A stretch of 64,000 nt of DNA, from NCBI RefSeq assembly GCF_964194025.1, contig NC_134470.1, forward strand, positions 51,274,001-51,338,000. Reading direction: 5' to 3'. Shown here one piece after another: positions 29,100 through 64,000 of the stretch. This DNA is from Convolutriloba macropyga (lineage: Eukaryota). Each line of letters begins with the position of its first letter. Within the stretch, counting starts at the first letter, position 1. The translations under genes were made by a program, and so were the position numbers. The notes beneath the pieces are model-generated. The model was not told the origin of the DNA and did no database searches. It was given only the letters and a program-made list of their open reading frames with translations.

Positions 29100-31135
29100 T
29101 TAAGAATAAAAATAGTAGAACTGCACATTAATAAGGCTCCCGTTTGCTGCAATCGTTTTGGCGGCTCGTCATAAAAGGACCAATCTGGACTCTTCTGATT
29201 CTGAATTGGTAAATAAATCTGGCCAAAAAGAGCGAGTCAAAATCATTGAGGCAGACCTCTTGATCATATCTGTCGACCATGATTGCAACAGTAATGGATC
29301 AAGCATCTCCCCTCCGATCAGTCGAGCACCCAAAAAGCAAAATAGTCACCTAGGGAGACCGTGCCAACAACATTGCCGCTAATTCCCGAATAGCAGTGAT
29401 TGACAAGGATTGCATGAGTTTACAGAAAGCTACAGACAACCCCTGCGCTTGGAAAGAACTCTTGTCACTTAACACAGCCAACCGCTTGAGTGTTTTTTTT
29501 TATGATTGCCGATATTCCGCCAAGGACTTCAATTGCAAGCAGAACAAATGTGATTCCATTTTTGCGCAGTTATCGTCGTGGAGGCAATATTTTCGTTCAT
29601 CTGCCGCATCAAGCGCGTATCCTGCCTTTGTAGCCGCATTAGTGAGAGAGTTGGATTGCAGAGACGAAGTAACGGTTACATCAAATGCAGCAGGTTTCCA
29701 CGCTTTCCAAGTTGGGACAAAGATGTCTCCGGGGCGTGATTGGCTTTCTGGAATGAGGTTTTTTCCACTACTGGTGAGAGATTCGCAGATGAGCAAACAG
29801 ACACTATTTTATCTAGAGTCCGGTCATGTCTTGCAATTGCGTCTCCTCGACCGTGACACGCAATGGCATGATCCCCATAGATGTCAAGAACTCGTTCATT
29901 ACAGAACGGGCACTTCCTTTCGACGTCGTAGACAGGGACACCCAACCTGTACTTTGCACTTCCTAAACTCATTTGGTACCATATGAAGCCCAAGAGCTGG
30001 AATGGGTGGAGCAGACAACCAAGCTCCTGCATGTCGAACAGACAATGAGAGAAGTCGGGCCGATGCTCTCTCACAAGCTAGATTCTTTGAGACCATGAAA
30101 TTTTTCATTATCAAGAGCTTGTTGGATCGTCTTTTGCGAAAAGTTTGAAATGTCCAGTTGTGCTATACTAGAATAAGGATCCTGAAAAACTGGTCAGTTT
30201 TTTGGGCTTTCACCGGTTATTTTTATAACAAGATCCTCAGATGAGAGAACAGAACCAACGTATGATGCTTTATACTGGTCTTGACATTGGCGAACACCCA
30301 ACCCTGATAGGGTTATGGGCAGGGTTGCTTGAGTCCAGGATTCTTCTGGAAGAACAGTTCCAAGGATATTCAAGTTTCTCGCGCTGTTGGGCATCAAATT
30401 CTTTTAGGGATTTAATAACTGAACTTGTGGGCGTTTGACAACGAACAGAATACACCATTTTGGGGGGACCAATGCAGTGGCGTAGGATACTTAGTGCGCA
30501 CTGAGGGTGATCAAGGTAGTCCAACTTTTCAAAAAGTACCCTTTTTTTCCCTATTATTTCGTTAGGTTTCATGTAGACAAAATCTGGGGTTCCTAACGCA
30601 GCTCCAAGAACCTCAAGGCCCAAAATATCATTTCGTTTTATTCTTATATCCAGTCCGTCTAAATCTACCGTGGACCACAGTTCGCACTTATCGACCCTGA
30701 CGTGGAGGCCGCGAGCTCGCATAGACGATTCCAAGATCTAATGAGATCGTCCTCTGAGCCCACCACGACACCATCATCTAGATACCAGGATTGTTGTTGA
30801 AGCTCTGGGGAAGATTCCTGAATTTTCTCTATAATGGGCCAGAGCGTCAGAGAAAAAAGCAAAGGGCCCAATGGGTCGCCTTGTTGGATACCGCTTTCAC
30901 TGCTAACACCAATTTTGTCATAAAATAATTGGCTTTGTTGTGAATAAAAGCGGCAATGCCAGGCATTGAATGGGCAACGGCTTTCAGCGTTTCACAGCGT
31001 TTTATCGAAGTGAATGCATTGCAAAAATCAATTTGCAAAATACCCGAGGAACTGGATGAGGTGAGTATACCGCTATTAGAAATGAGATTCGAATTCACCA
31101 AATTTGATTTGGAAAGGGCACTTGATAACCGTTTT
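29100..31135 (-). mobile_element. 5'-truncated, frameshifted non-LTR retrotransposon, CRE-clade-like (RT + Cys/His finger + restriction-like endonuclease)
   Basis: Minus-strand fragments in several frames: QIDFCNAF, GIQQGDPLGPLLFSL, WYLDDG (RT); CPFC…DIYGDHAIAC…RHD; RPGDIF…AAFDVTV…ERK (REL endonuclease); C-terminus …QSLSITAIRELAAMLLARSP* ending at 29350, then a ~250-bp 3' UTR. Confidence 0.88.
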
Positions 31136-31607
31136 TAGATTAAACACTTATTCGATCGGTTAAACACTTATTCGATTAGTTGTAAAATCGAATAAAAAAT
31201 TGATCTGTAAGAGCTCTCAAACTTTATTTTCGCTTGTGATCTTGATATCAGTTCTCTGTTGGTAACCGTTTTCTCTAGCCGCTAATTTCTGGCATATTCT
31301 CTTGCGTTCTGTTGATGCAGTTGTGAATTTTGTGTCTTCTCAGTCTATGGTATTGTTGCTTTTAATTTGAAATATGCGGTTTTTTACAAATATATTGGGA
31401 AAATTTTTTGAAAGCGTTGGTCGGCAAAAACAAAAATTGTTGATTAAGTTTGGCCATGTATATATGCGGAATACGCAATCAATTTCAATCTAATTCCACG
31501 AAATTATCATTTTAGAACTTTTAGCTACTGTTTCGAAACGAATTCTAAACTGCCTCTGGTCTTGGTAGCTCTTGTATTGTCGTTCATTTTATTTTCAGGT
31601 CTTTAGC

Positions 31608-32199
31608 ATGGCCTACAAAAAGTCGTTGCAACAGGGCTTAACGGGCATCGAGGCTGCAGTTGGTGGTCTCAAACAAGTATTCACACAACAGAATGAAATG
31701 TTTGACGAATTTGTGAATGACAGTATATCCCTGAATACAGATTTATTAGACTTTGTAAAGAAACGTGCGGAACTGCAGATAGAATACGGCAAGAGTTTAC
31801 AGAACTTATGCGACAGACAATTGAAGAAATATCAGAATCTTTTTGAACGTCAGCGGCGTTCTAATAAATGCAATAGTTCTATGTTTGGATGCTTTTATCA
31901 GTTATTGGCGAGTTCAAGGTTCGAAGCTTCGGATCTGATTGGTTTATCTCAAATGACAACCGATATCAGCGTCCCTTTAATAGAACACGCGCTGGGAGAT
32001 CTCAAAGTTAATCACTCTTCATTCAAGAAAGTGCTCTGTGATACCCAAAATGAACTGACAGGGCAAAGCGGTGATTTGGTGCTGAACATCAAAGACTACA
32101 ATGGCCAGTTCGCAGCCTTTAAAGAGAGTCAGTCCAAATTGGACACTGTCAAGAGTGACATGTCAAAATTACGTAATAGTTTGGAGAGCAAAGGAAAAG
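31608..32199 (+). CDS. SRGAP: srGAP/SRGP-1-like protein, coding exon 1 (N-terminal F-BAR/FCH domain)
   Basis: Acceptor ttttcag at 31598, ATG at 31608; FCH motif DLLDFVKKRAELQIEYGKSLQNL; donor AAG|gtatgt at 32200 (phase 1). Confidence 0.88.
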
Positions 32200-33169
32200 G
32201 TATGTAATTTAGCTGAGTCTATTTGAACGCAAATTGGGTCACCATGTCAAACTGGTGGTCTTAATTTGAGTGAAAAGAAGCACAAATTTTATTGCATGCA
32301 AATTTTTGAATGCGTACTTGTGGAGATGAGATCTTTCTTAAAAGAACTAAAAAAAACTTTCACAATTTGTCGAGGTAAAGTTAATGCGACGGTTAATTAA
32401 AATTTCCAAAGTTTCTGTAGTAACAGTTCTAAAACAACAAAATGATGAAACGATTTGAATAAACCTTTACATTTTCCACGTAGAATGCTCACATATTTTG
32501 AAAAATAGGTGATGGAAACATAGCTGCATGAGTCCAGATAGGGCTGCTTTAATGATACCTTAAAATAACTTACTAATCAAAAGATCCTGTAGAATTTTTC
32601 GCAAAAGAATTTTCGGCAAAAGAATTTTTCGCAAAAGAAATTTTGCAGAGAAACTAGAAGAAATTTTGAAGTAGATTTCACACTGTCATAAAAATGAAAA
32701 AATGTTATAATTTTCCAACTAACAAGATTACTACTCTTGAGGAGACGGTTCATAGATTTTCTCAACACTGAAAATCAATCAAAGACTAGAGTTTTTGAAA
32801 TTTTTCACGTCAAAAAACGTGACAAACAATTTTTGAAGCGTGATCATATCAGATACCGCATGGGAAAATTGATTATGTTAATCTGCTTTCTATGAAAAAT
32901 TGTTGTATTTTGTGTGTACTTTTTGTGTATTTTTTGAGGAAGAGATCAGACTTCGAGGACTAATTTTTCAAAAAAAACTTTTTTTTTATTTTTGAAAATA
33001 TCATGGAAACTATCATGGAAAATATCATGGAAAAATTTTTTTTCTTTTCGAAATATCATGGAAACGAGACTAAATTGGCCACCAACTTTTAAGATCTGCG
33101 ATATTTGAAGAAATATGACCTCTAAATGATTTGGCAGGTAATTGCGGGATAAACAGTACCTTACGTTTT

Positions 33170-44560: not shown

Positions 44561-46809
44561 TTTTTGTAGTAAAAAATGTCTCTTTTGATTCCATTTTTAC
44601 ATTTGCTTTTAGAATTTCTGTATTTTTATGACCGAATCTGCTTCTGAACTGCCCAGTATTGTATGGGGCACGTATTTTTGAGCTCATATTGTTTTCCTAT
44701 TTTCCTAAAATCCTTTTCGACTTCGAGTAGTCTTTTTGCCCTCATGCTAAAGTCGCATTTTAAAATAGAACAAAATGCTCGGGGTGAATACCGCTATTGT
44801 TATTATCATTGAGTCTGGGGATTGAGTATAATCAAAATTGTCGATACTTTTGCTTTGAAGGTTTTTAACGTTGTTTCCGAAGCAAAGCATTTTCAGTTGT
44901 ACTGTTTTGTTTGATCAAAATCTGCACTCCACTTCGTTCTTCATTTTTTATACTCATGTCGGAATTGCAGTTAGAATAATCCTAAATGGAAATTTGCAAA
45001 AATTCATGAGCTAGACCTCGAATTCGAAAAATTTTAAACAAAAACGACTGCTATTGTTGCATATTTAGCTTCAGTTTCAACTCGAATGAACATGTAAGAG
45101 AACAATGGTCTTAAGGGGATATATGAAAAAGGCTTCAAAGTAGAAAGCCTGCAAGTTTAGTTTGTTTCGAAAGCTAAGCTGAATTGTGCTTCAAAATGAG
45201 AGTACTCATACTGGTTAGGAGTAGATCTGGTAATCATTGGGGGATCTGGGGAGCAAATTAGATTGAAATTATAGGGCAAAATTTAAGAATGATTTTTTGA
45301 AATTTTGAAGATTTGTCCAGCTATATTTTCAGATGAGTTCACCGTTTGTCTCAAAGTTGCATTTTGTTTTGTATTCAATTTTACAAAAACCATTCCTTTG
45401 TAGCTCAGATTCTATGTCCTGCAATATGAGTTGGTTCCAAAAACATTTTGAATAATATTCAATTTTATCGAGTAATTATTCGGACTTGTGGCTCAATATT
45501 ATGAATCAAAAGTAAACCTAAAATTAATTGAAATAAGGGCAGAGAAAAACCATATATTGCAGAAACCATGCTGTGACTAATTTAGTAGCTAACCATTTTC
45601 ATAGACAAGTACCGTAAAGAATACTTTTATAAGTTGTGGTTTTGGCCTCTGGTTGTTAATACATTTAAGGGATCTAACGAACCGTTTGAACACAGATTAG
45701 AACACTTTAATCGTTGGAACTCTACTGTTCAACGGAATATTAGGTAAAAAGGTATACAGCTGCTGATCGAATGTTAGTACTTCCCGTGCGGTAGTTATTC
45801 GGAAAGTATAGCCAGTTATTGAACCAGAAATGAGTTGTGGGGTTTGGTTTATTTTGCCAATGCGTGGAAAGGACTTTCTCAATGCTAGGCCTAAGGGTAT
45901 TTGTGATCTAATCGACTCAGTTTTGTTTAGATTTTTATAAATAGAACAGGGAACTTGTTCAAACTCAAACAGGGTTCCATTAAGGCTGTTTCTACGGCGA
46001 CCTGCTTTGAACTGGACCTTTGATTGGAGACTTTTACATGTTTAGAGTAGTAGTAAGAGCAACCAGATGGTTTGCATGAAGAATGAAGAGATTTTGCATG
46101 TTATTTTGAGCTGCATAATTAAAGGATTAGTTGTGTTTGAAACACTAGTAAATGTAAACAGGTCACGTGGAGAATAGAGCTTGAAAGTCTAAGAAAGATA
46201 AATTGAGAAATGGTTGTTTCTCGAAATGTACTGGGAACATCGACTTAAATTCCCACATTGCTTCAGACTTTGCTGTGTTTTGACTAGAGTTATAGTGTAA
46301 GCTAATTGTGCATGCTGGCTTGAACATGCAACTCAAATGGAAAGTTTCATGTTTTGATACATTTTCTTGACATATGCTATGGCACAGTTGCCATGGTTTC
46401 CCACTGAAGGTCTTTGCAAGTTGCGTTGTCTGTGCTTAAACGTGATAAAGACCAAAGTAATGCTTTCCGATCTCGGTTGAGATCTATGCTCCCCGCCCCC
46501 ACCCCGGCGCCATTAAATACACGAATTATCTACGTCAATATTTGAATATCGCGTACAAGGGGTTTACATAATTTATGTGTAAGACGATGACGGGGAATTG
46601 GGTTCTGACGATACACAACCGAATCGAGCTATTATGGTAGTTTTTTGCAAGATTCTTGCGAAAACGCTTAGCTTGTAAAATCATATGAACGGGTATGTTC
46701 GTTTTATGACTCTGTTCTAGTGGGCATAAAATTTCGATACGCTCATTCTCCTAGATTTTTTTCTTAAGCAAAAACCAAAGTAGTAATATGCGAGCAAAGC
46801 TGGGGGGGG

Positions 46810-48392
46810 GGGGGGTAAAAGGAAGTACCTATGTATTAAGATTAGGTATAGCCCATTTTCCCTCAAATTCCAAGGAAGTACCTCACAGCATGATACCCAA
46901 GCTGTTCGCACTAAGGGGATTAGCAAGATAATCCTTTAATAATAATTTAGGATGACTCATTTACAGTTACGAACGAATTTTCAAAAACGTAGCTCACAGT
47001 ATGATAACCAAACTGTTCACACAAAGGGGGATTAGCCAGCTAATGTTTTAATATTAAATTAGATAAGATGACTCATTTACACTTATGTACAGCTTACGTG
47101 ATTTTGAAAAATGTACCTCACAGCATGACACCCAAGCTGTTCACACGAAGGGGATTAGCAAGATAGTGCCTTAACAACAAATTAATAAGGTCATCGACCC
47201 CCTACCAAATTACATTTTAATAACGTAAATTTTCAAAGACGTACCTCACAGCATGACACCTAAGCTGTTCACCCGAAGGGGATTAGCAAGAAAGTGACTT
47301 CACAACAAATTAATAAGGTCATCGATACCCTACCAAATTACATTTTAATAACATACATTTCCAAAGACGTACCTCACAGCATGACACCCAAGCTGTTCAC
47401 ACGAAGGGCATTAGCAAGATATTACCTAAAGAACAAATTAATAAGCTCATCGACCCCCTACCAATTTACACTTTAATAACGTAAATTTCCAAAGACGTAC
47501 CTCACAGCATGACACGCAAGCTGTTCACACGAAGGGGATTAGCAAGATAGTGCCTTAACAACAAATTTATAAGGTCATCGACCAACTACCAAATTACACT
47601 TTAATAACGTAAATTTCCAAAGATGTACCTCACAGCATGACACCCAAGCTGTTCACACGAAGGGGATTAGCAAGACAGTGCCTTAACAAATTAGTAAGGA
47701 CATTGACCCCCTACCATATTACAGTTTACTAATGTAAATTTCCAGAGATGTACCTCACAGCGTGACAGCCAAGCTGTTCGCACGAAGGGGATTAGCAAGA
47801 CAGTGCCTTAACATCGAATCAGTAAGGTCATTGTCCCCTTACCAAATTGCATTTTACTAACATCTGATTTCAAAGACGTATCTCACAGCATGATACCCAA
47901 GCTGTTCACGCGAGGGAGATTAGCAAGATAATCCCTTAATATTAAATTAGTAAGGTCATTTACCCATTCCCATATTACACTTTCATAATGTAAATTTTCA
48001 AAGGTGTACCTCCAGCATGACACCCAAGCTGTTCACACGAGGGGGATTAGCAAGATAGTGCCTTAACAACAAATCAGTAAGGTCATTGACCCCCTACCAT
48101 TTTACACTTTAATAATTCAAATTTCCAATAACGTACCCCACAGCATGACACCCCAGCTGTTCACACGAGGGGGATTAGCAAGACAGGGGGATAAAAGATG
48201 TACCTATCTATAAAGATTACGTATAGCCTATTTTCCCTCATATCCCGAAGACGTACCTCACAGCGTGATACCCACGCTGTTCACACGAGGGGGATTAGTC
48301 AGATAATCCCTTAATATTCAATTAGTAAGGTAATTTACCTCTTCCCATAAAAGACGTACCTCAGAGCATGATACCCAAGCTGTTCACACGAA
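46810..48392. repeat. Tandem array of ~13 units, ~128-bp period, with a conserved ~55-bp core (GTACCTCACAGCATGACACCCAAGCTGTTCACACGAAGGGGATTAGCAAGA)
   Basis: Core at ~46878, 46989, 47113, 47241, 47369, 47497, 47625, 47749, 47878, 48006, 48133, 48253 and 48355. Confidence 0.95.
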
Positions 48393-49050
48393 AAATATCA
48401 CATTCTTGCTTAAAATACCCAATTCTTGCCAAAAATACCCCATCCTCGCTAAAAATACCCAATTCTTGAAAAAAAATTCTTACCAAAAAATCACCAATTC
48501 TTGGCAAAAAATACACAATTATTGCCAAAAATACCCAATTATTGCCAAAAAATACCCAATTATTGCCAAAAATGTCCAATTATTGCCACAAATACCCAAC
48601 TCATGCTAAAAATACCTATTTCTTGAAAAAAAGACACAATTCTTGCTAAAAAATACCCAATTCTTGAAATAAACACCCAATTCTTGCCAAAAACATACCA
48701 ATTCTTGGCAGAAAACACACAATTCTTGGTGAAAAAACACCCAATTCTTACCAAAAATACCCAATTAATACCAAAAATACCCAATTATTACTAAAAATTA
48801 CCCAATTATTGCCAAAAATTACCCAATTCTTGCAGAAAATACCCAAATCTGACAAATTTTTTTCTAAAACTTTACCAGAAACTACCCAATATTAAAAAAA
48901 TAGCCATTTCTTACCAAAAATACTTCCTTTTTGCCACAAAAAACATATTTTCTAACAAGAAACCCAATTCTATTAAAAACTGTCCACTTGCTACCACTTA
49001 TAATTACCACAAAGTAGCTAAATATTGTCAAAAATACTCAATTTTTACAC
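48392..49050. repeat. ~21-bp minisatellite (AAAAATACCCAATTCTTGCCA)
   Basis: Directly visible, decaying toward 49050. Confidence 0.92.
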
Positions 49051-49587
49051 GTTTTTTTAGTATTGTAGAAAAACAACCAAATTTTGTAAAGAATAACAAA
49101 ATGTTTTCAAATATTTATCGAAAATATATCAAAAAATTAGACAACTTAACATAACATCATCATCTGTATTTATTTAATTTCTATCTGACAATCCGTTTAT
49201 TTAGTGATCTTTCAAACATCAATTTTGACATCTTCTTTTGTAAAGGCGAATCTTCTCAGGTGATCGATAGAGGTTTTTTGAGTACAACTTCATCGAACTT
49301 TTCACTATCGTTAGAAATAAGTCATAAAATGTATCAATTAAATCATAGTACCATAAAAATTACGTCCTACTATCTTCGCAATTAAGGACAAATAGATGAT
49401 TTCATAATTGCATGGGGACCACTGTCCTCTTTAGAACAAAATTAAGATCAATTACGTCTTAGGATTGGAACAATTACCGAATTACAGAAACCTAGATATT
49501 CTATGTGGTCATTGAACTCATGTGAACAAAGTCTATACCATACTACTTACGATATGATGATTCATACTTTATCTAAGCATGCACAAC

Positions 49588-49692
49588 TCACGTGATTGAC
49601 GTCTTCCTCATAGTACCGTAATAATAACGTCACTATTGCGTCATAATGATGTCATCTTTATCATAGTGTACAAACAAAAGTACAACTCATTT
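49588..49692 (+). promoter_or_regulatory. Candidate promoter: cluster of E-box and ATF/CRE-like sites plus an initiator-like TCATTT
   Basis: TCACGTGA (49588), TGACGTC (49597), ACGTCA (49627), TTGCGTCAT (49636) and ATGATGTCAT (49646) within 70 bp; TCATTT at 49687; followed by a strong donor gtaagt at 49851. Confidence 0.4.
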
Positions 49693-50047
49693 TACTTCTT
49701 TTCCTTCTCTTCAACAACTTAACTATAACTAGCTTTTGTTCTTTTCTTGAGACAATTTGAAGCGCTTTTTTTACCAGCCTAAGTTGACAACTATAAACTC
49801 TTCAGCGAAGATTCTTCATCTACAGGACCTCTGCCTATTTCGCATTCCAAGTAAGTCTGTTCTGTTATAAAATATGAGAACAAACCAAAAAAAGCGAATA
49901 AATAGCTATTATAATCATGGTACTCATTGGCAAATAGCATAGGAATGCTTCAGAGAGAAAGGTTTAGGGATTATGGTTATAGAGGCAATTTTGCTTTAAT
50001 TTAGTTCATTTAGGATTTCAACCGTCTTGAACCAAACAAAGGCTGGA

Positions 50048-50920
50048 ATGATGAATATCAAATCTGTGAAATTGAACGAAAATCTCAAGGTCCACTTCTT
50101 CTTCCCCGACTTCAATGATGATGTAGCAATTATAAAAGAGAGAAAAACGTGCTTCGGATGGGTAGCTGATCCTCCATTCTCAATTCCGAGGCAGCTTCTG
50201 GTCTTCATTGTTGCTATCGAGAATTTGCCTGAAGTCTCTGTACCATACAAACAGACAACTGTAGACTTTTACAAAAACCACAATGAAAACACAACTTTAC
50301 AAGTCTCGGACACCATGGAACTAAGCAGATCAGTCCGTGCGCAATTCTGTGATTATGAGTTGTCCTATAAAGCAATACATGAAAATCAACGAGGATTTTT
50401 TGAGGAGGAGAGGGAACTTAAATTCCTCTGGTGTGTTTCTGACGAGTATGACGATTTGCAGGAGCAGAAACCTGATCGCGATTGTGACGATTGGGAAAAT
50501 GAGTCACTGACAGAGAGTATTATTGCAAGTATAAAAGAAGAGAACGCACTTGGCCTCAAGTTTGACAACAAAAAATTTGACAAGTCAGTCACCTTTTCGT
50601 GTTTTTCTACAGAAACTGAACAAGAAACCATGAAAGAAGTACAGGAGACATCAACGGTTGAAAATACTGTACTCGAGTCTGTCAGAACCATCCTCAGTAA
50701 AGTAGTTGACGAATGTGCAGATAATCGGGATCATTTTTTTCCTGATGCAACTGAAGCAATATCTGAAAAAACTTCCCTCAAATGTGAGCAACCGGCGTAT
50801 TGTACACAAAAGACAGTCAAGAGAAGGGCTTTGTTGTCAATAACCCTGAGAGAGAGGGAAGTAGAAAGTCAGAAGTTGATGAGAACGAAGAAAAATTGTG
50901 TCCTCCATCGAGCAAATTGA
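50048..50920 (+). CDS. Intact ~290-aa acidic orphan protein nested in the srGAP intron; RVxF-like motifs
   Basis: 873-bp stop-free ORF in AT-rich DNA; upstream intron 49851 (gtaagt) to 50013 (ttcatttag); ATG ATG at 50048; KSVTF at 50582-50596. Confidence 0.65.
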   Translation: MMNIKSVKLNENLKVHFFFPDFNDDVAIIKERKTCFGWVADPPFSIPRQLLVFIVAIENLPEVSVPYKQTTVDFYKNHNENTTLQVSDTMELSRSVRAQFCDYELSYKAIHENQRGFFEEERELKFLWCVSDEYDDLQEQKPDRDCDDWENESLTESIIASIKEENALGLKFDNKKFDKSVTFSCFSTETEQETMKEVQETSTVENTVLESVRTILSKVVDECADNRDHFFPDATEAISEKTSLKCEQPAYCTQKTVKRRALLSITLREREVESQKLMRTKKNCVLHRAN

Positions 50921-51261
50921 GACGACATACTGAGTTATATGGTAACTAAACTAGCAATCTGAGAAGATATTCCATTGGCTGATTATTTTTGTTTGTATTT
51001 CCTGTATAATTTCAAATCTGATACTAGTATTTTTTGTGATGACTGATTGACTGATTAATTTGAAATATTGTGTTTCTACACTCAGAAAAGCTGAAGCTTA
51101 TGTATGCTTTTGAATTAATACATTGATACTAATATTTAATTGAGTTTTAAAAATGCATTTTCGAAAACAATTTTTATCAAAAGTTCGATTTTGAATTTAA
51201 ATATTTCTCGACAAATGCTTGCTTTGGAAATATCGTTTTTTTTTCAAAAATGTGGGTTATA

Positions 51262-51801
51262 GTCGTTGCAGAGACTGTGAAGTTGATTGGAAATCGTTGG
51301 GATGGAAATGATCTGGTTATCAGACAAAGGACCGTAGTCGACATACGACCACAAAATATCTGAAAGGTTCTCATGCGGATAGGTTTTTTTAACAACAGGT
51401 TTTTCAAGTTCCTGAATGAGCTGAAAGACCAGATTTTTGAGGTAGGAATGAGCAAGACACGTATTGAACATAAAGAACCAATATTTCTTGGGTTCTTTAT
51501 CCTCCTGTACGCCAAAATTACAATGTTGCAACTTAAATACATTTTCTAATCCTCTTTCTGCAATCCAAACAAATATGAGTTGATTGAAATTGATACTGAC
51601 AGTCTTTGCTTAGCACGTAGTGAGGAAAAATTTGACGAATTCAGTTGACCAGAAACGAATCCATTGTGGTACTGGATGATGCAAAGTAATTGCAGTGATA
51701 ATTTCGCAGCAGACTTTAGCAACAATTCTTTACCACGAAATGAATGCAATAATCATGGAAACTTTCATATGGGAACACCTGGTTTTTCTAAAGAAGAATT
51801 T
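51262..51801 (+). pseudogene. Polinton/Maverick/adintovirus-type protein-primed DNA polymerase B fragment
   Basis: Hand translation: VVAETVKLIGN /frameshift/ GYQTKDRSRHTTTKYL…IEHKEPIFLGFFILLYAKITMLQLKYIF*SSFCNPNKYELIEIDTDSLCLA…*…TPGFSKEEF. This contains PolB motif B (KxxxNSxYG, disrupted), motif C (DTDS at 51592-51603) and the PGxFKxE motif; two in-frame stops. Confidence 0.88.
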
Positions 51802-51849
51802 TTGGTAAAGATTTTTAGATATAGATGCATACATATCATTAATAAAAAA

Positions 51850-53054
51850 ATTTACAATTTTTGTAAGTGGAAAACCATTTCAATTAGTTTATTGTTTTGA
51901 ATAAAAATTGTTTTACTAAAGGAAATTTTTTTTGAAAAATGTAAATTTTATAAGGTTTCTAACAAAAAAATGTAAATTTTGATGTTTTTTATTTTTCTAT
52001 ATTTTACATTTTTCAGTTTTTGAAGTTTTTTTTCATGTATAATTTTTAATTCGTTTTTTATTCAAAATTGTTGTTTTACCGAAGAAAATTTTTTCAAATG
52101 TTGTCTTTTACATAAGGTTTTAACCAAAAGTAGACATGCTGTTGTTTTTTTATTTTTCTATTTTCATTTCTCAGTTTTGGAACTTGTTTCACGTAAATTT
52201 TTTAATTCATTTGTTTTTTATTAAAAAAAGGTTGTTTTACAAAAATAATTTTTTTTTAAAAAATGTCGTTTTTAACTTTTAAGGTTTCTAACCAAAAATG
52301 TAAATTTGTTTGTTTTTAAATTTTCTACATTTACATTTTAGTTTTAGAATTTTTTTCATGTAAAATTTTCAAGTTAATTATATTTTTCATTAAAAAGTGA
52401 TCTCACTAAAATAATTTTTTTTCAAAAATGTCGCTTTTTACATAAGGTTTTCAACCAAAAATGTATATTTTGTTTTTTATTTTTTCTATTTTTTCCATTT
52501 TTCAGTTTTGGAAGTTTTTTTTATGTAAAATTTTCAATTTAATTGTTTTTTTATTAAAAAATGTTGTTTTACTAAAATGATTTTTTTTCAGAAATGTCGT
52601 TTTTTACATAAGGTTTTTATCCAAAAATGTAAATTTTATTGTTTTTTTATTTTTCTATTATTACATTTTTTCAGTTTTTGAAGTTTTTATGTAAAATTTT
52701 CAATTTAATTATTTTTTCATTAAAAAATTTTTTTCGTAAGACTTTAACCAAAAATCTATATTTTGCTATTTATTTTTCCATTTCTCTGTTTTGGAAGTTT
52801 TTTATGTAAAATTTTCAATTTAATTGTTTTTTTATTAAAAATGTTAATTTACCAAAAAAAATTTTTTCTCAAAATTGTCGTTTTTTACATTTTTCAGTTA
52901 TTGAAGTTTTTTTCATGTAAAATTTTTAAATTAAATATTTTTTTCATTAAAAAATGTTTTACTAAAGTAATTTTTTTGAAAAATGCCGTTTTTTACATAA
53001 GGGTTTAACCAAAAATATATATTTTTGTTGTTTTTTATTTTTCTATTTTTCCAT
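51850..53054. repeat. Very T-rich degenerate ~165-170-bp tandem satellite running into the gap
   Basis: Motif cataaggttt(t)aaccaaaaatgta recurs at ~51950, 52111, 52280, 52441, 52608, 52737 and 52996. Confidence 0.85.
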
Positions 53055-53254
53055 NNNNNNNNNNNNNNNNNNNNNNNNNNNNNNNNNNNNNNNNNNNNNN
53101 NNNNNNNNNNNNNNNNNNNNNNNNNNNNNNNNNNNNNNNNNNNNNNNNNNNNNNNNNNNNNNNNNNNNNNNNNNNNNNNNNNNNNNNNNNNNNNNNNNNN
53201 NNNNNNNNNNNNNNNNNNNNNNNNNNNNNNNNNNNNNNNNNNNNNNNNNNNNNN
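53055..53254. other. Assembly gap (200 N)
   Basis: N bases. Confidence 0.99.
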
Positions 53255-53321
53255 CAATAAGTCAAAAAAAACTCAACAAAGGAAAATGAATCATGCTCTA
53301 ATTGTCAAATTTTTGTTCCAG

Positions 53322-55390
53322 AAACATCTTCAAGCTCAAAGTTTCGTTCTCTTGAGAAGTCAGAGAAGAAGCGGAAAGAAACGATGGTTGCATCTCGACA
53401 GAAATTGAACAAATCACGAAATGATTACCTGCTCAGCTTACAGGCTCTCACACATTACAGGAACAAACTATTCAATGACGATATTCACGGTCTGTTTGAA
53501 AATTTGACCTGCGAATTCTACCATTTGATGAAGGTTGCATTCAAAAGCCTACATCATGCACAAGTAAAACGCATATCAAACATGGAAATTTGCAACGAGA
53601 AATTGACTGAGAAAGAACGCGAGGTGGATTTTAGGAAGGAATGGGACTCATTGTACGACACCTATGCCGATTGTTTGGAAATTCCCGACTCACGGTTGGA
53701 GTTTTTGCCCGCGTACACGAAAGAGTGCCTGGACAGCATAAGCAGCCTTCAGTTAGACTCTGATATTGAAGAACGATACCCGATAATAATCCAGAACTTC
53801 CAGGCTAACTTGATAAAGAGCAAAGAAATTGAGGACCAAATTGAAGCATCCAAACGGTCGATTGCAAACATGGCAGATAGTATGCGTGTTGATTTGTCAG
53901 ACTATCTTAGTGATTTGCAGAATCTAAGTGGATCTACGGGAACGCTTCAGAACAATGTCCAATGCGATGATAGCCCGGAAGGTGAGAATGGGGCACCCTC
54001 GCTAAATGGTACCCTTAAGGGCTCCGAAATATCATCAGAAGCTGCTATGAAACGTTCCTGGACGAAAATCAAAACTCAGTACAGTAATGTCGTCGCCAAG
54101 TACAAAGAACTGTTCAACTATTCTAACAAGGCTGCAAGATTGAAGGCTAGAAAAGATCTGATTGAGTCGACATTCGGTGGAGCGCTTGAAACGAAGCGAG
54201 ACTCCTACCAATCCATGGCTCTTAAACGGCAAGAAAGTGTTCGAATTACAAAATACGTACCAAGACCAGTGGCTGCAGTTAACGTGAAACTTTTTGGTGG
54301 AGATATTGAGCAGTATTGCAAGGCTATTCAGAAAGACATACCTCCTATTGTGTTAAGCTGCATTGAGTTCATAAGAGAGCACGGTATGTTTACGCAAGGA
54401 ATATTTCGTGTCAATGGTGCTAAATCGACGGTACGATATTTGAAGGACTATTTCGAGGGTGGCGATGACCCGCTTTTGTCGCCCAGCGCAGACTCAAATT
54501 CAGAAGAATATGAAGCAGCAGCTGTTTCAGAACTCCTGAAGCTTTATTTCAGACAACTGCAACAGCCGCCATTGCCGACCGATATCTTAACTTTGTACAT
54601 GAAGTCAAAAGAAGCACAGAACGCGGATTCTGTTGAAACTGATAGTCAAATTTCGTCAAATACCAGCTCAACGTCTGACAAATCGGAAGGGTCATCGACT
54701 TTTTCAGTGAGTGGTAAAACTGTCGAGGAAGTCCTCAAGAACGTGTTATCAAAACTGCCTTACTCGACTATGGTCACGCTAAGGTATCTATTTGCCTTTC
54801 TTCACAGTTTGACTCGCTTCAGTGACGAAAACATGATGGATGCCTACAACTTGGCAATCGTGTGGGGTCCCACTCTGATCAGACCAGAAGCTGAAGATCT
54901 GGTTGCTTTGCAGAACCCGAGTATTGAACTGGTGCAGTTTATGGTCATCAATCATGACCAGGTGTTCCCACAGGATTCGGGATCCCTCTTCTCAGACACA
55001 ACGAGCCGTGTCAGACCAAGGACATTGTCGTTAGCAGAGTGTGGAAGCATGAGCTCATTGGCAGATTCGATTGACACTGCGAGTCCTTACAGTCAGAACA
55101 ATAACAATATCAGCTACGACGCTAACATGTCAGTTTCGCCCATGTATTCACAAGGTTCAAAACTGCCCGCGCCCAAACCCCCGATTAAAACCTCCTCTGG
55201 TTCTGGATTTTCACCTTCATCAGATTCGGCAGAATCGTTGAGCACATCTTCGCACAGCCCAACCACAAGTCCAAAGAACTTAAGACATTTCAGACCAGCT
55301 TCGAGTGTTATAGTGACGTCAGCGGCCTTGGTCTCGCAGCCCGGGGAAGTTGTTAAAGAAGCTGCAGTTATGAATAACCGTTTGGTGTGA
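53322..55390 (+). CDS. SRGAP: srGAP/SRGP-1-like protein, coding exon 2 (rest of F-BAR, coiled coil, RhoGAP domain, S/P-rich tail)
   Basis: Acceptor ttttgttccag at 53321 matches phase 1 (G|AA = Glu). srGAP-like KLNKSRNDYLLSL; RhoGAP motifs KLFGG, IPPIVLSCI, GIFRVNG (arginine finger), LKLYFRQL, NMMDAYNLAIVWGPTL. Confidence 0.93.
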
Positions 55391-61399: not shown

Positions 61400-61804
61400 T
61401 GTGATACGTATGGATACCTATTATATATCGAAACTCCTATGTGTACTAAATTATTTATCCTCTATATCTATAATTATATCATGCGTTTTATAACTAAAAG
61501 TTATGACTTCTATTTATTCACCTATATTAATATTCCCGTAAGTCTACTAAATTATTTCATATTTTGTTCATACTAGTTTATCATAAGTAATCATAATTTC
61601 ATTTAGTTATCTGAATTCAAGTTACTCTGTAAACGCTCTTCATAATCTTAATCTAGATTTAACAACGGATTCGCGCCGCGTCTCCAAGAATCAGAATTCG
61701 TAATACACAAGTTATTGTGTATTCGCCTAGCAATTCCTATCGTAATCTCGACACCAGTATTCGCAACGCGAATCCTAAAGTATTCAATACAATTAAGTAT
61801 AACA
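61400..61804 (+). repeat. 5' LTR (~405 bp) of the Ty3/gypsy element
   Basis: TGTGATAC…GTATAACA imperfect terminal inverted repeat with TG…CA ends, followed directly by a PBS. Confidence 0.75.
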
Positions 61805-64000
61805 TGGCGCAGTCAGCGACAAAGGACAGCGGCAAATCCCCACTTGGAATTCAACCCTTTTGGGAAAAGGCAACACTAGAACCTCCAATTCGCTGGGAGT
61901 TTTGGAGAATACAGTTGAAACTCGCAATTCTCGCCCGAGAAGGAATTGAAGTAGATCTCCTCTTATTGGACCCCCCAGAACATGTCCTCTTACCTCCTGA
62001 ACCAGCATATGAAGATGCAGTTGACAACCCGACGGCACAATCAGAGCGAGACCGACGTACCCGCAATGAACAAGCAAAAACAGCGTGGAAGAATCAGTGT
62101 CAACGAGTTACAGCAGTTGGTATACTTTGCGGTGATAAACCGTGGAAGTTATGTGATCGGAAAGCATCCTCTTTGATGTACTTGAGCTTAGGCATGGAAG
62201 GTCGGCGCGTATTCAACTCAAAGAATTCGACCATCAATCTTGAAACAATTTCAACGAAAGATCTGTGGGATATTCTCAATACAACCTTCATTCGGATCCA
62301 CAATATAACCTTCGATAGATACCTATTCCTCACCCGAAAACAGCAAAAGGGAGAACCTATTGAGAAATTCTATGGACATCTCAAAGAACTTTCGGAAAAC
62401 TGTGACCTTGGAGATAAAGGAGACACGATCATCCGGGACGTCTTTATTGCAAACATGCAAAATGAAGACATTCAAAAGGAGCTCCTTAAGGAAACAGTTG
62501 ACCCTGAAAAAGCATTGGCAATAGCGATCAATATCGAGATGGGTACGCTCAACCAATTAAAAATGAATGCAAGCAAAACCGAGTCACATTCAACTGTTAA
62601 TCAAGTACAACGGATGCGCATCGCAAATGCTACCCCTTTCTCCAATATGAATACAACAGCACGAAAAAAGCCAACAACCTGTCATTTCTGTGGATCCAAT
62701 TGGACCTCTGACCACCGAAATAAATGTCCCGCTCGGGGAAAAAGATGCAATAACTGTGGTATTGAGAACCACTTCGCAAAAGTTTGCCGAAAACCTAAAG
62801 ATCCCAATTCCTACCCAAAACCTAAACCGCGGGTCAATAACGTAGAAAAGGACGATCAAAATGAAGATGTCAATCAGATTTCGACAAATTTTGATCCTGA
62901 TTTGGAATCAAACTATTCTTCAGATGAAGATAATTGTGTAGCAGCAGTATCCTCAACAGATTCCTCAACTTCAGTGGATGCAATCAATCTTCCTGTAATC
63001 TTTGGTAAAACATCAACAAATGTTTTGGTGGATTCGGGCAGCGTATGCACAATAATAAACGAATCCTTGGCAAACTCCATCTTTTCACATGATTCAAAAT
63101 CGAAGTGGATACGCGATGCGAATCCTAAACAATTGAAAACATTTTCAAACGAACCTATTAATACGGTGGGCATTCTTCAAACTTCAATTCAAAGCAGCAA
63201 TTGGTACGCAAATCCAATAGAAATTCAAATAGTGGCAGACGGACATCGATCTCTATTGGGTAGAGATTTGTTTCCAGCTCTTGGACTCTCAATACATCAA
63301 TCAAGTAACAATGTAACAATTAATCAGGTAGATCAAGAATATTGCCCAATCAAAAAACAGATTGCTATTGATTATCCCGATCTCATCTCCAGAATTGGTA
63401 AGTCCAAAGTACATACAGTTCGTTCAAAATTCCACAAACACTATACTCCATCCCACCAAAAGGGCCGTCGTGTTCCTATAAATTTACTAGACAAAGTATC
63501 TGCTGAGCTGAAGAAACTTTCTGAACAAGGACACATCGAAAAATTACAAGAATGTTCGGATAAAAACTACATTTCCCCCATTGTAATCGCGGTCAAAAAG
63601 GACAAATCTGTAAAGTTAGCTCTTGATTCAAAAATATTAAATAAAGCGATCCACAAAAACAAGTACCAAATGCCAAATATAGATAGTCTTATCGATTCAA
63701 TCTCACAACATATTAATAATTCAAACCTAGGAGATCATGTCTACTTTTCAACGATTGATTTAAAATACGCCTATAGTCAATTAAAACTGCATCCGGATAC
63801 CGCACGTCATTGCAATTTTAATATTTATTTGCGGCGATGCAACTGGCACATATCGTTTTAAAACGGGATTTTACGGCCTTACGGATATGCCGGCTGAGTT
63901 TCAAAAGGCAATGGATTACACATTGGTTGGACTAACTAACACATACTGTTTTCTGGATGACATAATTGTAGTTAGCAAAGTACCAAGGAATCGCACCTCA
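61804..64000 (+). CDS. Gag-Pol polyprotein (Gag with double Cys/His knuckle, aspartic protease, RT), with a frameshift at ~63825
   Basis: CHFC…H…C and CNNCGIENHFAKVC; protease VLVDSGS; RT SPIVIAVKKD…IDLKYAYSQL, continuing in a shifted frame as GTYRFKTGFYGLTDMPAEFQ…YCFLDDII. Confidence 0.92.
61805..61817 (+). promoter_or_regulatory. Primer-binding site, tRNA-Ser-like (TGGCGCAGTCAGC)
   Basis: Starts with TGG directly after the LTR CA; resembles the complement of a tRNA-Ser 3' end (recalled, not searched). Confidence 0.65.

Follow-up and report, generated by a model that had tools for sequence, protein, structure and literature searches.

A palindromic multi-copy element of Convolutriloba macropyga, probably a snap-back satellite of a Polinton, with an accessory gene under selection

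An arm of a palindromic element in an intron

We describe a module of about 6 kb in an intron of an srGAP-like gene of Convolutriloba macropyga, within a stretch of 64,000 nucleotides that was analysed as a whole (assembly GCF_964194025.1, contig NC_134470.1, positions 51,274,001 to 51,338,000; hereafter the window, whose numbering is used throughout). The module, at 46779-53054, is one arm of a near-perfect palindrome that is present in many copies in the genome. We consider it probable that this element is a snap-back satellite of a family of full-length Polintons, here called family A, and that it has kept under selection an accessory gene which likely aids its own spread. An earlier note on this DNA, made from the letters alone, missed the palindrome, which is the main feature, and overlooked the Polinton terminus at 46779, which is the true start of the module. 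The parts that it did describe were all found, in the order claimed, and are given here with the terminus, the flanking hexamer and the gap that follows the arm:

46773-46778, no strand: hexamer flanking the element on the left, expected to be its 6-bp target-site duplication (TSD), judging from the sequence and from the 6-bp TSDs of family members
46779-46880, plus strand: Polinton terminus, in which AGTAGT precedes a run of G; full-length family A has it too
46865-48392, plus strand: subterminal array of 128-bp units, which also makes up the terminal inverted repeats (TIRs) of full-length family-A Polintons
48391-48970, plus strand: 20/21-bp minisatellite, found also at the end of full-length copy A7 that is proximal to the DNA polymerase B (PolB) gene
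49580-49660, plus strand: ACGT/TGACG motif cluster and candidate promoter, similar to the sequence upstream of family-A PolB
49851-50013, plus strand: putative intron of 163 bp (GT..AG) within the 5' leader, with splice dinucleotides conserved across arms
50048-50920, plus strand: Polinton accessory open reading frame (ORF) of 290 amino acids, with a conserved N-terminal domain (N-domain, amino acids 2-131) and an acidic, unconstrained C-terminal part
51261-51801, plus strand: broken PolB piece, the C-terminal part of a family-A-type protein-primed PolB, with a frameshift near its start and in-frame stops
51880-53054, plus strand: 165/166-bp satellite toward the fold-back axis; a related satellite stands at the other end of A7, and in the family-A derivatives S2 and S3 described below
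53055-53254, no strand: 200 N, the expected place of the axis and of the mirror arm; 200-N runs are central in other copies too

The 128-bp array has a Tandem Repeats Finder core at 47113-48183 (8.4 copies), with related units from about 46865 to 48392, and is 74-83% identical to both ends of family-A copies A2-A6 and A8. It had been called hairpin-rich. This part of the description did not stand: as a structured RNA or DNA hairpin the unit did no better than shuffled sequences in most copies (z -0.48 to -2.06, five units). The motif cluster is real, as only one of 3196 windows of 81 bp across the 64 kb attains its count of ACGT/TGACG motifs, a rank to be read with the fact that the motif list was picked after inspection of the site; the cluster may serve as the promoter of the ORF. 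Within the candidate intron the interior diverges by about 0.2 while the splice dinucleotides stay: the G and T of the GTAAGT donor at 49851 persist in 97-99% of 77 arms, as do the A and G of the acceptor at 50012-50013 in 97-99% of 79 arms. The leader intron is thus presumably spliced. The ORF is uninterrupted, as claimed, the frame being open from 50000 to 50920 with 290 amino acids from the ATG at 50048. In most copies the start is the second ATG, at 50051, and the final 29 or so codons of the window copy are in a different frame from that of most copies.

Architecture and copy number of the palindrome

Many of the ORF matches form converging pairs. Eight such pairs were examined over their full length, and in these the entire 6-kb module occurs twice, inverted. 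The element consists of two inverted arms with converging ORFs and AGTAGT ends. The arms are mostly 5-9 kb long, make up nearly the whole element and are mostly 88-99% identical to each other. From terminus to terminus, eight ORF-bearing copies measure 10.3-18.7 kb, and a smaller palindrome, S1, measures 6.05 kb. Among 15 two-ended copies examined for TSDs, 13 could be evaluated (two could not); the duplication was perfect (6/6) in 11 of them and 5/6 in the other two. One TSD encloses the entire palindrome. A 5-base loop at a common axis motif was present in 16 of 78 stretches scanned (subfamilies 5 and 7), and copies at many unrelated sites have this identical 5-base axis, which argues that the palindrome moves as one unit. 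In subfamily 4 the centre is taken up instead by a GC-rich loop, conserved and about 170 bp long (L119:4050-4300, L104, L114, L116 and E6), which had no match in Rfam and no counterpart among the full-length copies tested. Palindrome, ends and TSDs were all directly observed, and we regard this architecture as nearly certain.

A search of the animal's own genome with the ORF gave at least 137 matches at 59-100% identity (137 of 1157 candidates scored), so that the ORF, described in the earlier note as an orphan, is far from one. Exact 18-mers of the ORF were found in 171 and 184 places (control 0), and because these 18-mers catch 65-66 of 79 sampled arms, we estimate some 200 arms, or about 100 elements. 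The terminal motif gave 134 exact pattern matches in the genome, again with a control of 0. The parts of the module are linked and recur jointly as the arm of a mobile palindrome, and the suggestion that they belong to a non-autonomous Polinton derivative was right. No ORF for integrase, packaging ATPase or capsid was found in palindromes E1-E7, and the element lacks an intact protein-primed PolB, the piece measuring at most about 630 bp and carrying shared stops. Compared with the interior of family A, 59 further loci matched only in the PolB piece, apart from a single short non-coding match on the left.

The two arms of an element have evidently been copied from each other. In 27 of 31 elements no sequence was closer to an arm than its partner (median 2.1% versus 3.4%), and of the variants private to one element, 336 were on both arms and 456 on one. 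Several stops, too, are present on both arms of the same element. Nearest partners and private variants on both arms point to repeated copying of one arm into the other.

Fold-backs have also formed anew. One, on C1 (L176-L177, G000:C1:14667589-14685180), is a secondary fold-back whose new axis lies inside the ORF; a 6-bp duplication goes with it, as does a tandem duplication that takes in host flank. The opposite end of family A gave S2 (L058, G000:C2:591111-599823), a palindrome of 8.7 kb with arms of 165-bp satellite and, close to its centre, an ATPase piece. Two family-A copies of 8.8 kb, S3 and S4, carry internal deletions. Elsewhere, L169 (G000:C7:60841100-60851099) is a tandem array whose unit of about 1.04 kb contains the ORF's 3' portion, so that here an element is becoming satellite DNA, and expanded 165-bp satellite centres are seen in L108, L113, L135 and L173.

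The mirror arm of the window copy

The window arm ends about 35 bp short of the axis known from complete copies and is followed by the 200 N. A run of 200 N is central also in E3, E7, E8, S1, L081, L084 and L090. Forty copies looked unpaired; 19 of these proved to have a second arm, 15 have a 200-N gap near the centre, four continue in satellite and two are truncated. Most likely, then, the mirror arm of the window copy is lost in its gap. The partner of its TSD hexamer is not visible, and the other end of the element lies in or beyond the N run. The simplest reading of such gaps is assembly drop-out at the hairpin, although the N may also be masking. Contigs of four runs leave the content of the N run undecided, with no joint spanning the whole element among the joints listed (15 of 63). 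A 3-base match to the expected TSD after the gap proved uninformative: six other half copies whose terminus could be read lack this pattern, and in five no terminus was found. Elements of this kind break assemblies at their axis and can masquerade as 'orphan genes in introns'.

Ends, arrays and polymerase piece from family A

Family A comprises eight full-length Polintons with the same end as the palindrome and a long PolB frame, 15.1-15.9 kb in size where both ends were found. Most copies have the 128-bp array as TIR, and the six with both ends matched have 6-bp duplications. Representative ORFs tested include PolB, integrase (rve) and ATPase (Pox_A32), and homologues of the PolB carry PF03175. 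Further frames are probable capsids, judged by their position; they had no profile hit.

The ends, arrays and PolB piece of the palindrome come from family A. The window terminus matches four family-A ends at 58-64 of 70 bases, and the ends of two other full-length families, B and C, at 28-32 of 70. In copy A7, PolB is immediately preceded by the 21-bp array and an ACGT cluster of the same kind, and the 165-bp satellite stands at the opposite end. The upstream region of the arm shows local matches of 60-72% to the region upstream of PolB in family A, where ACGT-type motifs number seven in A7, ten in A1 and none in A5. The claim of a decayed PolB downstream of the ORF on the same strand was borne out: the broken piece is 74-78% identical in DNA to full-length family-A PolB and in a tree lies nearer to family A than to B or C. 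This piece, or part of it, is found in every subfamily, with boundaries common to all.

Family A is probably the helper of the palindrome. Since ends and TSDs are shared with family A, we infer mobilisation in trans by the enzymes of the helper. Several terminal subtypes, in a segment that spans 46779-46806 in the window copy, are also common to palindromes and full-length family-A copies, and one palindrome subfamily has more than one subtype, an observation that suggests exchange of ends between palindromes and helpers.

Origin of the accessory gene

The ORF has a different history from that of the ends. The earlier note asked whether the parts co-occur in full-length Polintons: ends, arrays and PolB do so in family A, but no homologue of the ORF was found in the eight family-A copies by tblastn, and a search of 1840 frames with a hidden Markov model (HMM) gave a best E of 0.28. 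Homologues at 43-46% identity are present in full-length Polintons of other families, namely in a 19.3-kb element within E8 and in three elements of about 17.6-17.8 kb. In these the homologue is the first inward gene at one end; families B and C, in their full-length copies, have it at the opposite end from PolB. Of 59 copies that seemed to stand alone (40 + 19), not one passes over into full-length Polinton genes.

A HMMER search of 1.84 billion proteins gave 53 hits, among them about a dozen distant (20-27%) and unnamed proteins whose N-domain has conserved NQ and W motifs; a wider profile added 28 further homologues. An APKK-like motif is present at the C-terminus of 11 of 12 distant or full-length homologues and an RxL-F motif in three of the 12, while three palindrome proteins have neither. 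LxCxE was found in none of 15 proteins tested and is also absent from the window ORF. Searches of Pfam, PHROGs and PDB sequences with the ORF gave no match. On these sequence comparisons the ORF is a Polinton accessory gene. The cargo considered in the earlier note is this Polinton gene and not host cargo. Because the ORF is absent from family A and has homologues in other full-length families, the element reads as a chimera, in which the ends, the promoter-like region and the PolB piece are of family A and an accessory gene of another lineage occupies the position where PolB would start.

Two loci bear further ORF sequence. The 19.3-kb element (L036-L038, G000:C13:2483594-2502942) is a full-length family-B Polinton with a 221-bp TIR and a 6-bp TSD, inserted in the ORF of an arm of E8; its own ORF homologue, of 428 amino acids with an acidic repeat, lies behind a tandem array of about 110 bp. 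Beside E6 (L033:6312-6998), gene model P0072 joins the second half of the ORF frame to a host frame (PF06916) just past the palindrome, and the join could possibly be an exon capture or a mis-joined model.

Selection on the accessory gene

Codon changes were counted pairwise, without a consensus, in 79 full arms from 44 elements (88 aligned pieces). Loci present in duplicate and arms too short to span the ORF were removed, and the small subfamilies 1, 2, 3 and 6 were left out of subfamily contrasts. The ratio of nonsynonymous to synonymous change (dN/dS) of the N-domain was 0.18, 0.17 and 0.21 in three subfamily contrasts, with upper limits of the confidence interval (CI) at 0.29-0.38. Between subfamilies it was 0.19-0.31 with transition/transversion weighting and 0.24-0.30 with empirical base rates, and inside subfamilies 0.37-0.51. 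For the C-terminal part the ratio was about 0.5-1.1, the unweighted counts giving 0.48-0.94. The PolB piece (51385-51789) gave 1.7-2.6 between subfamilies 5 and 7 (1.71 unweighted), with the CI above 1 and with low third-position change. A gene antisense to the PolB piece found no support; its ratios were 0.87-1.56, and no other frame accounts for the sense ratio above 1. Between the two arms of an element, the N-domain ratio was 0.73 (0.52-1.02), near neutral, matching decay after insertion.

The N-domain frame is intact in 49 of the 79 arms and broken in 30. Of 31 disabling lesions only two are recurrent, each in two elements, whereas PolB stops are common to whole subfamilies and extend across subfamilies. 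From the mostly private lesions of the N-domain and the shared stops of PolB it follows that the lineages that spread had an intact gene. The N-domain has thus been under purifying selection on the element lineage, and the contrast drawn in the earlier note between an open ORF and a decayed polymerase holds in this sense.

That the selection acts within the satellite itself we consider fairly likely. Two findings weigh against it. The PolB piece and the flanks have diverged less than the ORF has at synonymous sites (dS), so that alleles may have been exchanged with unsampled donors, and the deep subfamily contrasts number only three. The ORF might instead be a passive passenger, useless to the palindrome, whose signal of selection stems from unsampled or extinct full-length Polintons and which entered the subfamilies by recombination. 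Besides the high dS, such a history would agree with the swapping of terminal subtypes between palindromes and full-length copies, with the same stop in both arms of some elements, and with the perfect TSD of S1, a 6-kb palindrome without the ORF; S1, however, has a gap at its centre. No close full-length donor appeared in the 59 lone-looking or the eight family-A copies, the nearest full-length homologues being those at only 43-46% identity, and the boundaries of the PolB piece are the same in all subfamilies. The ratio is below 1 inside subfamily 4 in three of four weightings and inside subfamily 7 in all four, and no subfamily shares a disabling lesion. We therefore regard a passive passenger as rather unlikely.

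Predicted fold of the N-terminal domain

An AlphaFold2 (AF2) model (predicted local distance difference test, pLDDT, 86) has a four-strand sheet and a helix. The weak top structural matches of the ORF model include MRP1/2, a PC4 homologue and Pur-alpha, and were not reproduced with P0120. We tentatively suggest that the N-domain might bind single-stranded nucleic acid through a PC4/Whirly-like sheet and helix. A Rel homology dimerisation (IPT) domain, PF16179, was an atlas lead at 0.83 that was not repeated with a homologue from a full-length Polinton. It is ruled out further by the lack of a Pfam hit and by the model, which is alpha/beta with three helices, as against an immunoglobulin-like sandwich.

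Model for the origin and spread of the palindrome

The palindrome may go back to a family-A molecule with an internal deletion that, in the course of its protein-primed, strand-displacing replication, folded back and served as its own template. Both ends would then be the same origin, and the displaced strand could zip into a full hairpin that is efficiently copied by the helper PolB. The palindrome would be inserted by the helper integrase. One arm would be repeatedly templated on the other, by re-folding, by hairpin mismatch repair or by gene conversion. The ORF would have been picked up from another Polinton lineage and would occupy the position that PolB has in family A; behind the promoter-like motifs of PolB, it would be expressed alongside the early genes of the helper. 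In the least certain step, which is doubtful even to us, the N-domain would favour replication intermediates of the satellite by binding single strands. The protein would benefit its own copy during an episomal stage.

Taken furthest, this would make the element a true satellite of an endogenous DNA virus of animals, a heritable snap-back genome having the origins and PolB promoter of its helper and no core genes, and carrying in two copies a single-strand-binding protein, captured from a different Polinton lineage, that biases replication or packaging by the helper in favour of the satellite, the protein family being widespread and unnamed. We hold this to be possible rather than likely.

The palindrome could also have formed on the chromosome, by paired head-to-head insertion of half elements or by recombination of long TIRs, followed by gene conversion, with no snap-back intermediate. 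Homogenisation of the arms does not separate replication from chromosomal gene conversion, and the tandem and rearranged copies show that elements do change in place. The single TSD around the whole palindrome and the one 5-base axis at many unrelated sites speak for an element that moves as one unit, so that chromosomal events could concern only its first origin and its later homogenisation. We think such an origin unlikely.

Domestication by the host, whether of the intronic copy, as the earlier note proposed for a viral accessory gene, or of the whole family, for instance as a dominant-negative or a source of small RNA against Polintons, could draw on the open frame and intact splice signals of the window copy, on gene model P0072 beside E6 and on the double-stranded RNA that long palindromes would give if read through, but it is most unlikely in view of at least 171 copies (171-184 places), individual ones of which decay, the 30 of 79 arms broken in the N-domain, the near-neutral change between arms after insertion (0.73, CI 0.52-1.02) and the youth of the window copy, which is 1.6% from its nearest neighbours and has a C-terminal frame unlike that of most copies.

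A snap-back satellite with a selected gene would be instructive in several ways. Selection on a gene is not usual in non-autonomous DNA elements, since a product acting in trans should give no advantage to the copy that encodes it; selection on the ORF thus points to a stage, episomal or in a particle, during which a copy gains from the gene it carries. It also marks out one unnamed Polinton accessory domain as being of use apart from its parent element.

Host locus and other features of the window

The host gene is recognisable on both sides of the insertion:

31569-32207, plus strand: F-BAR/FCH exon of the srGAP-like gene (PF00611, E 2.9e-9), upstream of the insertion
53261-55390, plus strand: RhoGAP exon frame of the srGAP-like gene (PF00620, E 1e-34), downstream of the insertion

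Other repeats in the window include a 732-amino-acid gag-pol-like frame of a retrotransposon of the long terminal repeat (LTR) type at 61663-63861 (RVT_1, E 1e-4, and a weak aspartyl protease). Broken frames at 29354-30737 on the minus strand resemble the reverse transcriptase and zinc-knuckle end of a non-LTR retrotransposon. Tandem arrays are found at 793-1805 (12 bp, 85 copies) and at 3241-6388 (22 bp, 143 copies, 92% matches).

Comparison with known systems

Polinton replication has been modelled from sequence and is not known to have been observed. Integrated snap-back genomes, with arm templating and repeated new axes, would be a natural record of Polinton replication intermediates, and linear palindromes and hairpins are the targets to look for in the animal. 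Non-autonomous Polinton families are present in Repbase. Our literature search found no description of palindromic non-autonomous Polintons (the founding Polinton paper was outside its reach), and none of PC4-like Polinton proteins of this ORF's kind or of acoel Polintons.

Mavericks are described as having (AGT)2//(ACT)2 or (AG)3 termini and a 6-bp TSD (PMC8097293). The palindrome resembles Polintons/Mavericks (PMC8097293, PMC10748475, PMC6431247) in its (AGT)2//(ACT)2 ends, its 6-bp TSD, its size within 10-25 kb and its PolB-derived and accessory-gene sequence. It departs from an autonomous element in PolB, core genes and TIR layout: it has no intact PolB, integrase, ATPase or capsid gene, and its arms are nearly the whole element, whereas usual Polinton TIRs of 100-1,500 bp surround a unique interior (PMC10748475).

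Snap-back defective viral genomes have been described for RNA viruses and as non-coding (PMC13506859). They are made by template switching of the polymerase and compete with their helper; for the palindrome the repeated new axes bear on this only indirectly. Like these, the palindrome is almost wholly self-complementary with a tiny loop, has one terminus at both ends and, we infer, needs a full-length helper. It is unlike them in being DNA, integrated with TSDs, inherited in many copies and endowed with coding capacity, in the form of a selected gene on both arms.

In butterflies, polinton-related insertions without PolB and polintons with gene-bearing TIRs of 2 kb are reported (bioRxiv 10.1101/2025.02.07.637071). 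These share with the palindrome a doubling of genes in long inverted repeats and mobility without PolB; however, they have a unique middle, with capsid and protease genes in the TIR, while the middle of the palindrome is a 5-base or about 170-bp loop. Foldback elements (Drosophila FB, Galileo, Tetris) are similar in their long and internally repetitive inverted arms that breed satellites. They are moved by cut-and-paste transposases. That of Galileo belongs to the P superfamily (PMC3573991). The ends, TSD and genes of the palindrome are, by contrast, of Polinton type.

The ORF itself recalls the Oncoid and Adintoc genes of adintoviruses (PMC8502044) in being a small Polinton accessory ORF, which in the palindrome stands upstream of the PolB piece, and in the short C-terminal motifs (APKK-like, RxL-F) of its distant homologues. 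Oncoid has an LxCxE motif with a CK2 site and paired CxxC (PMC8502044, section 3.2), and the ORF differs from it in the absence of LxCxE; it may equal an Adintoc group. With PC4, Whirly and PUR proteins the ORF model would share the topology of a four-strand sheet and a helix. It differs from them in having no significant score or sequence similarity, and in an added half of a hairpin and two helices with the NQ and W motifs. Beyond these systems, the palindrome comes with a helper family that is named, with a gene carried by both arms whose selection is measured beside an internal neutral control, and with the capture of that gene from another Polinton lineage.

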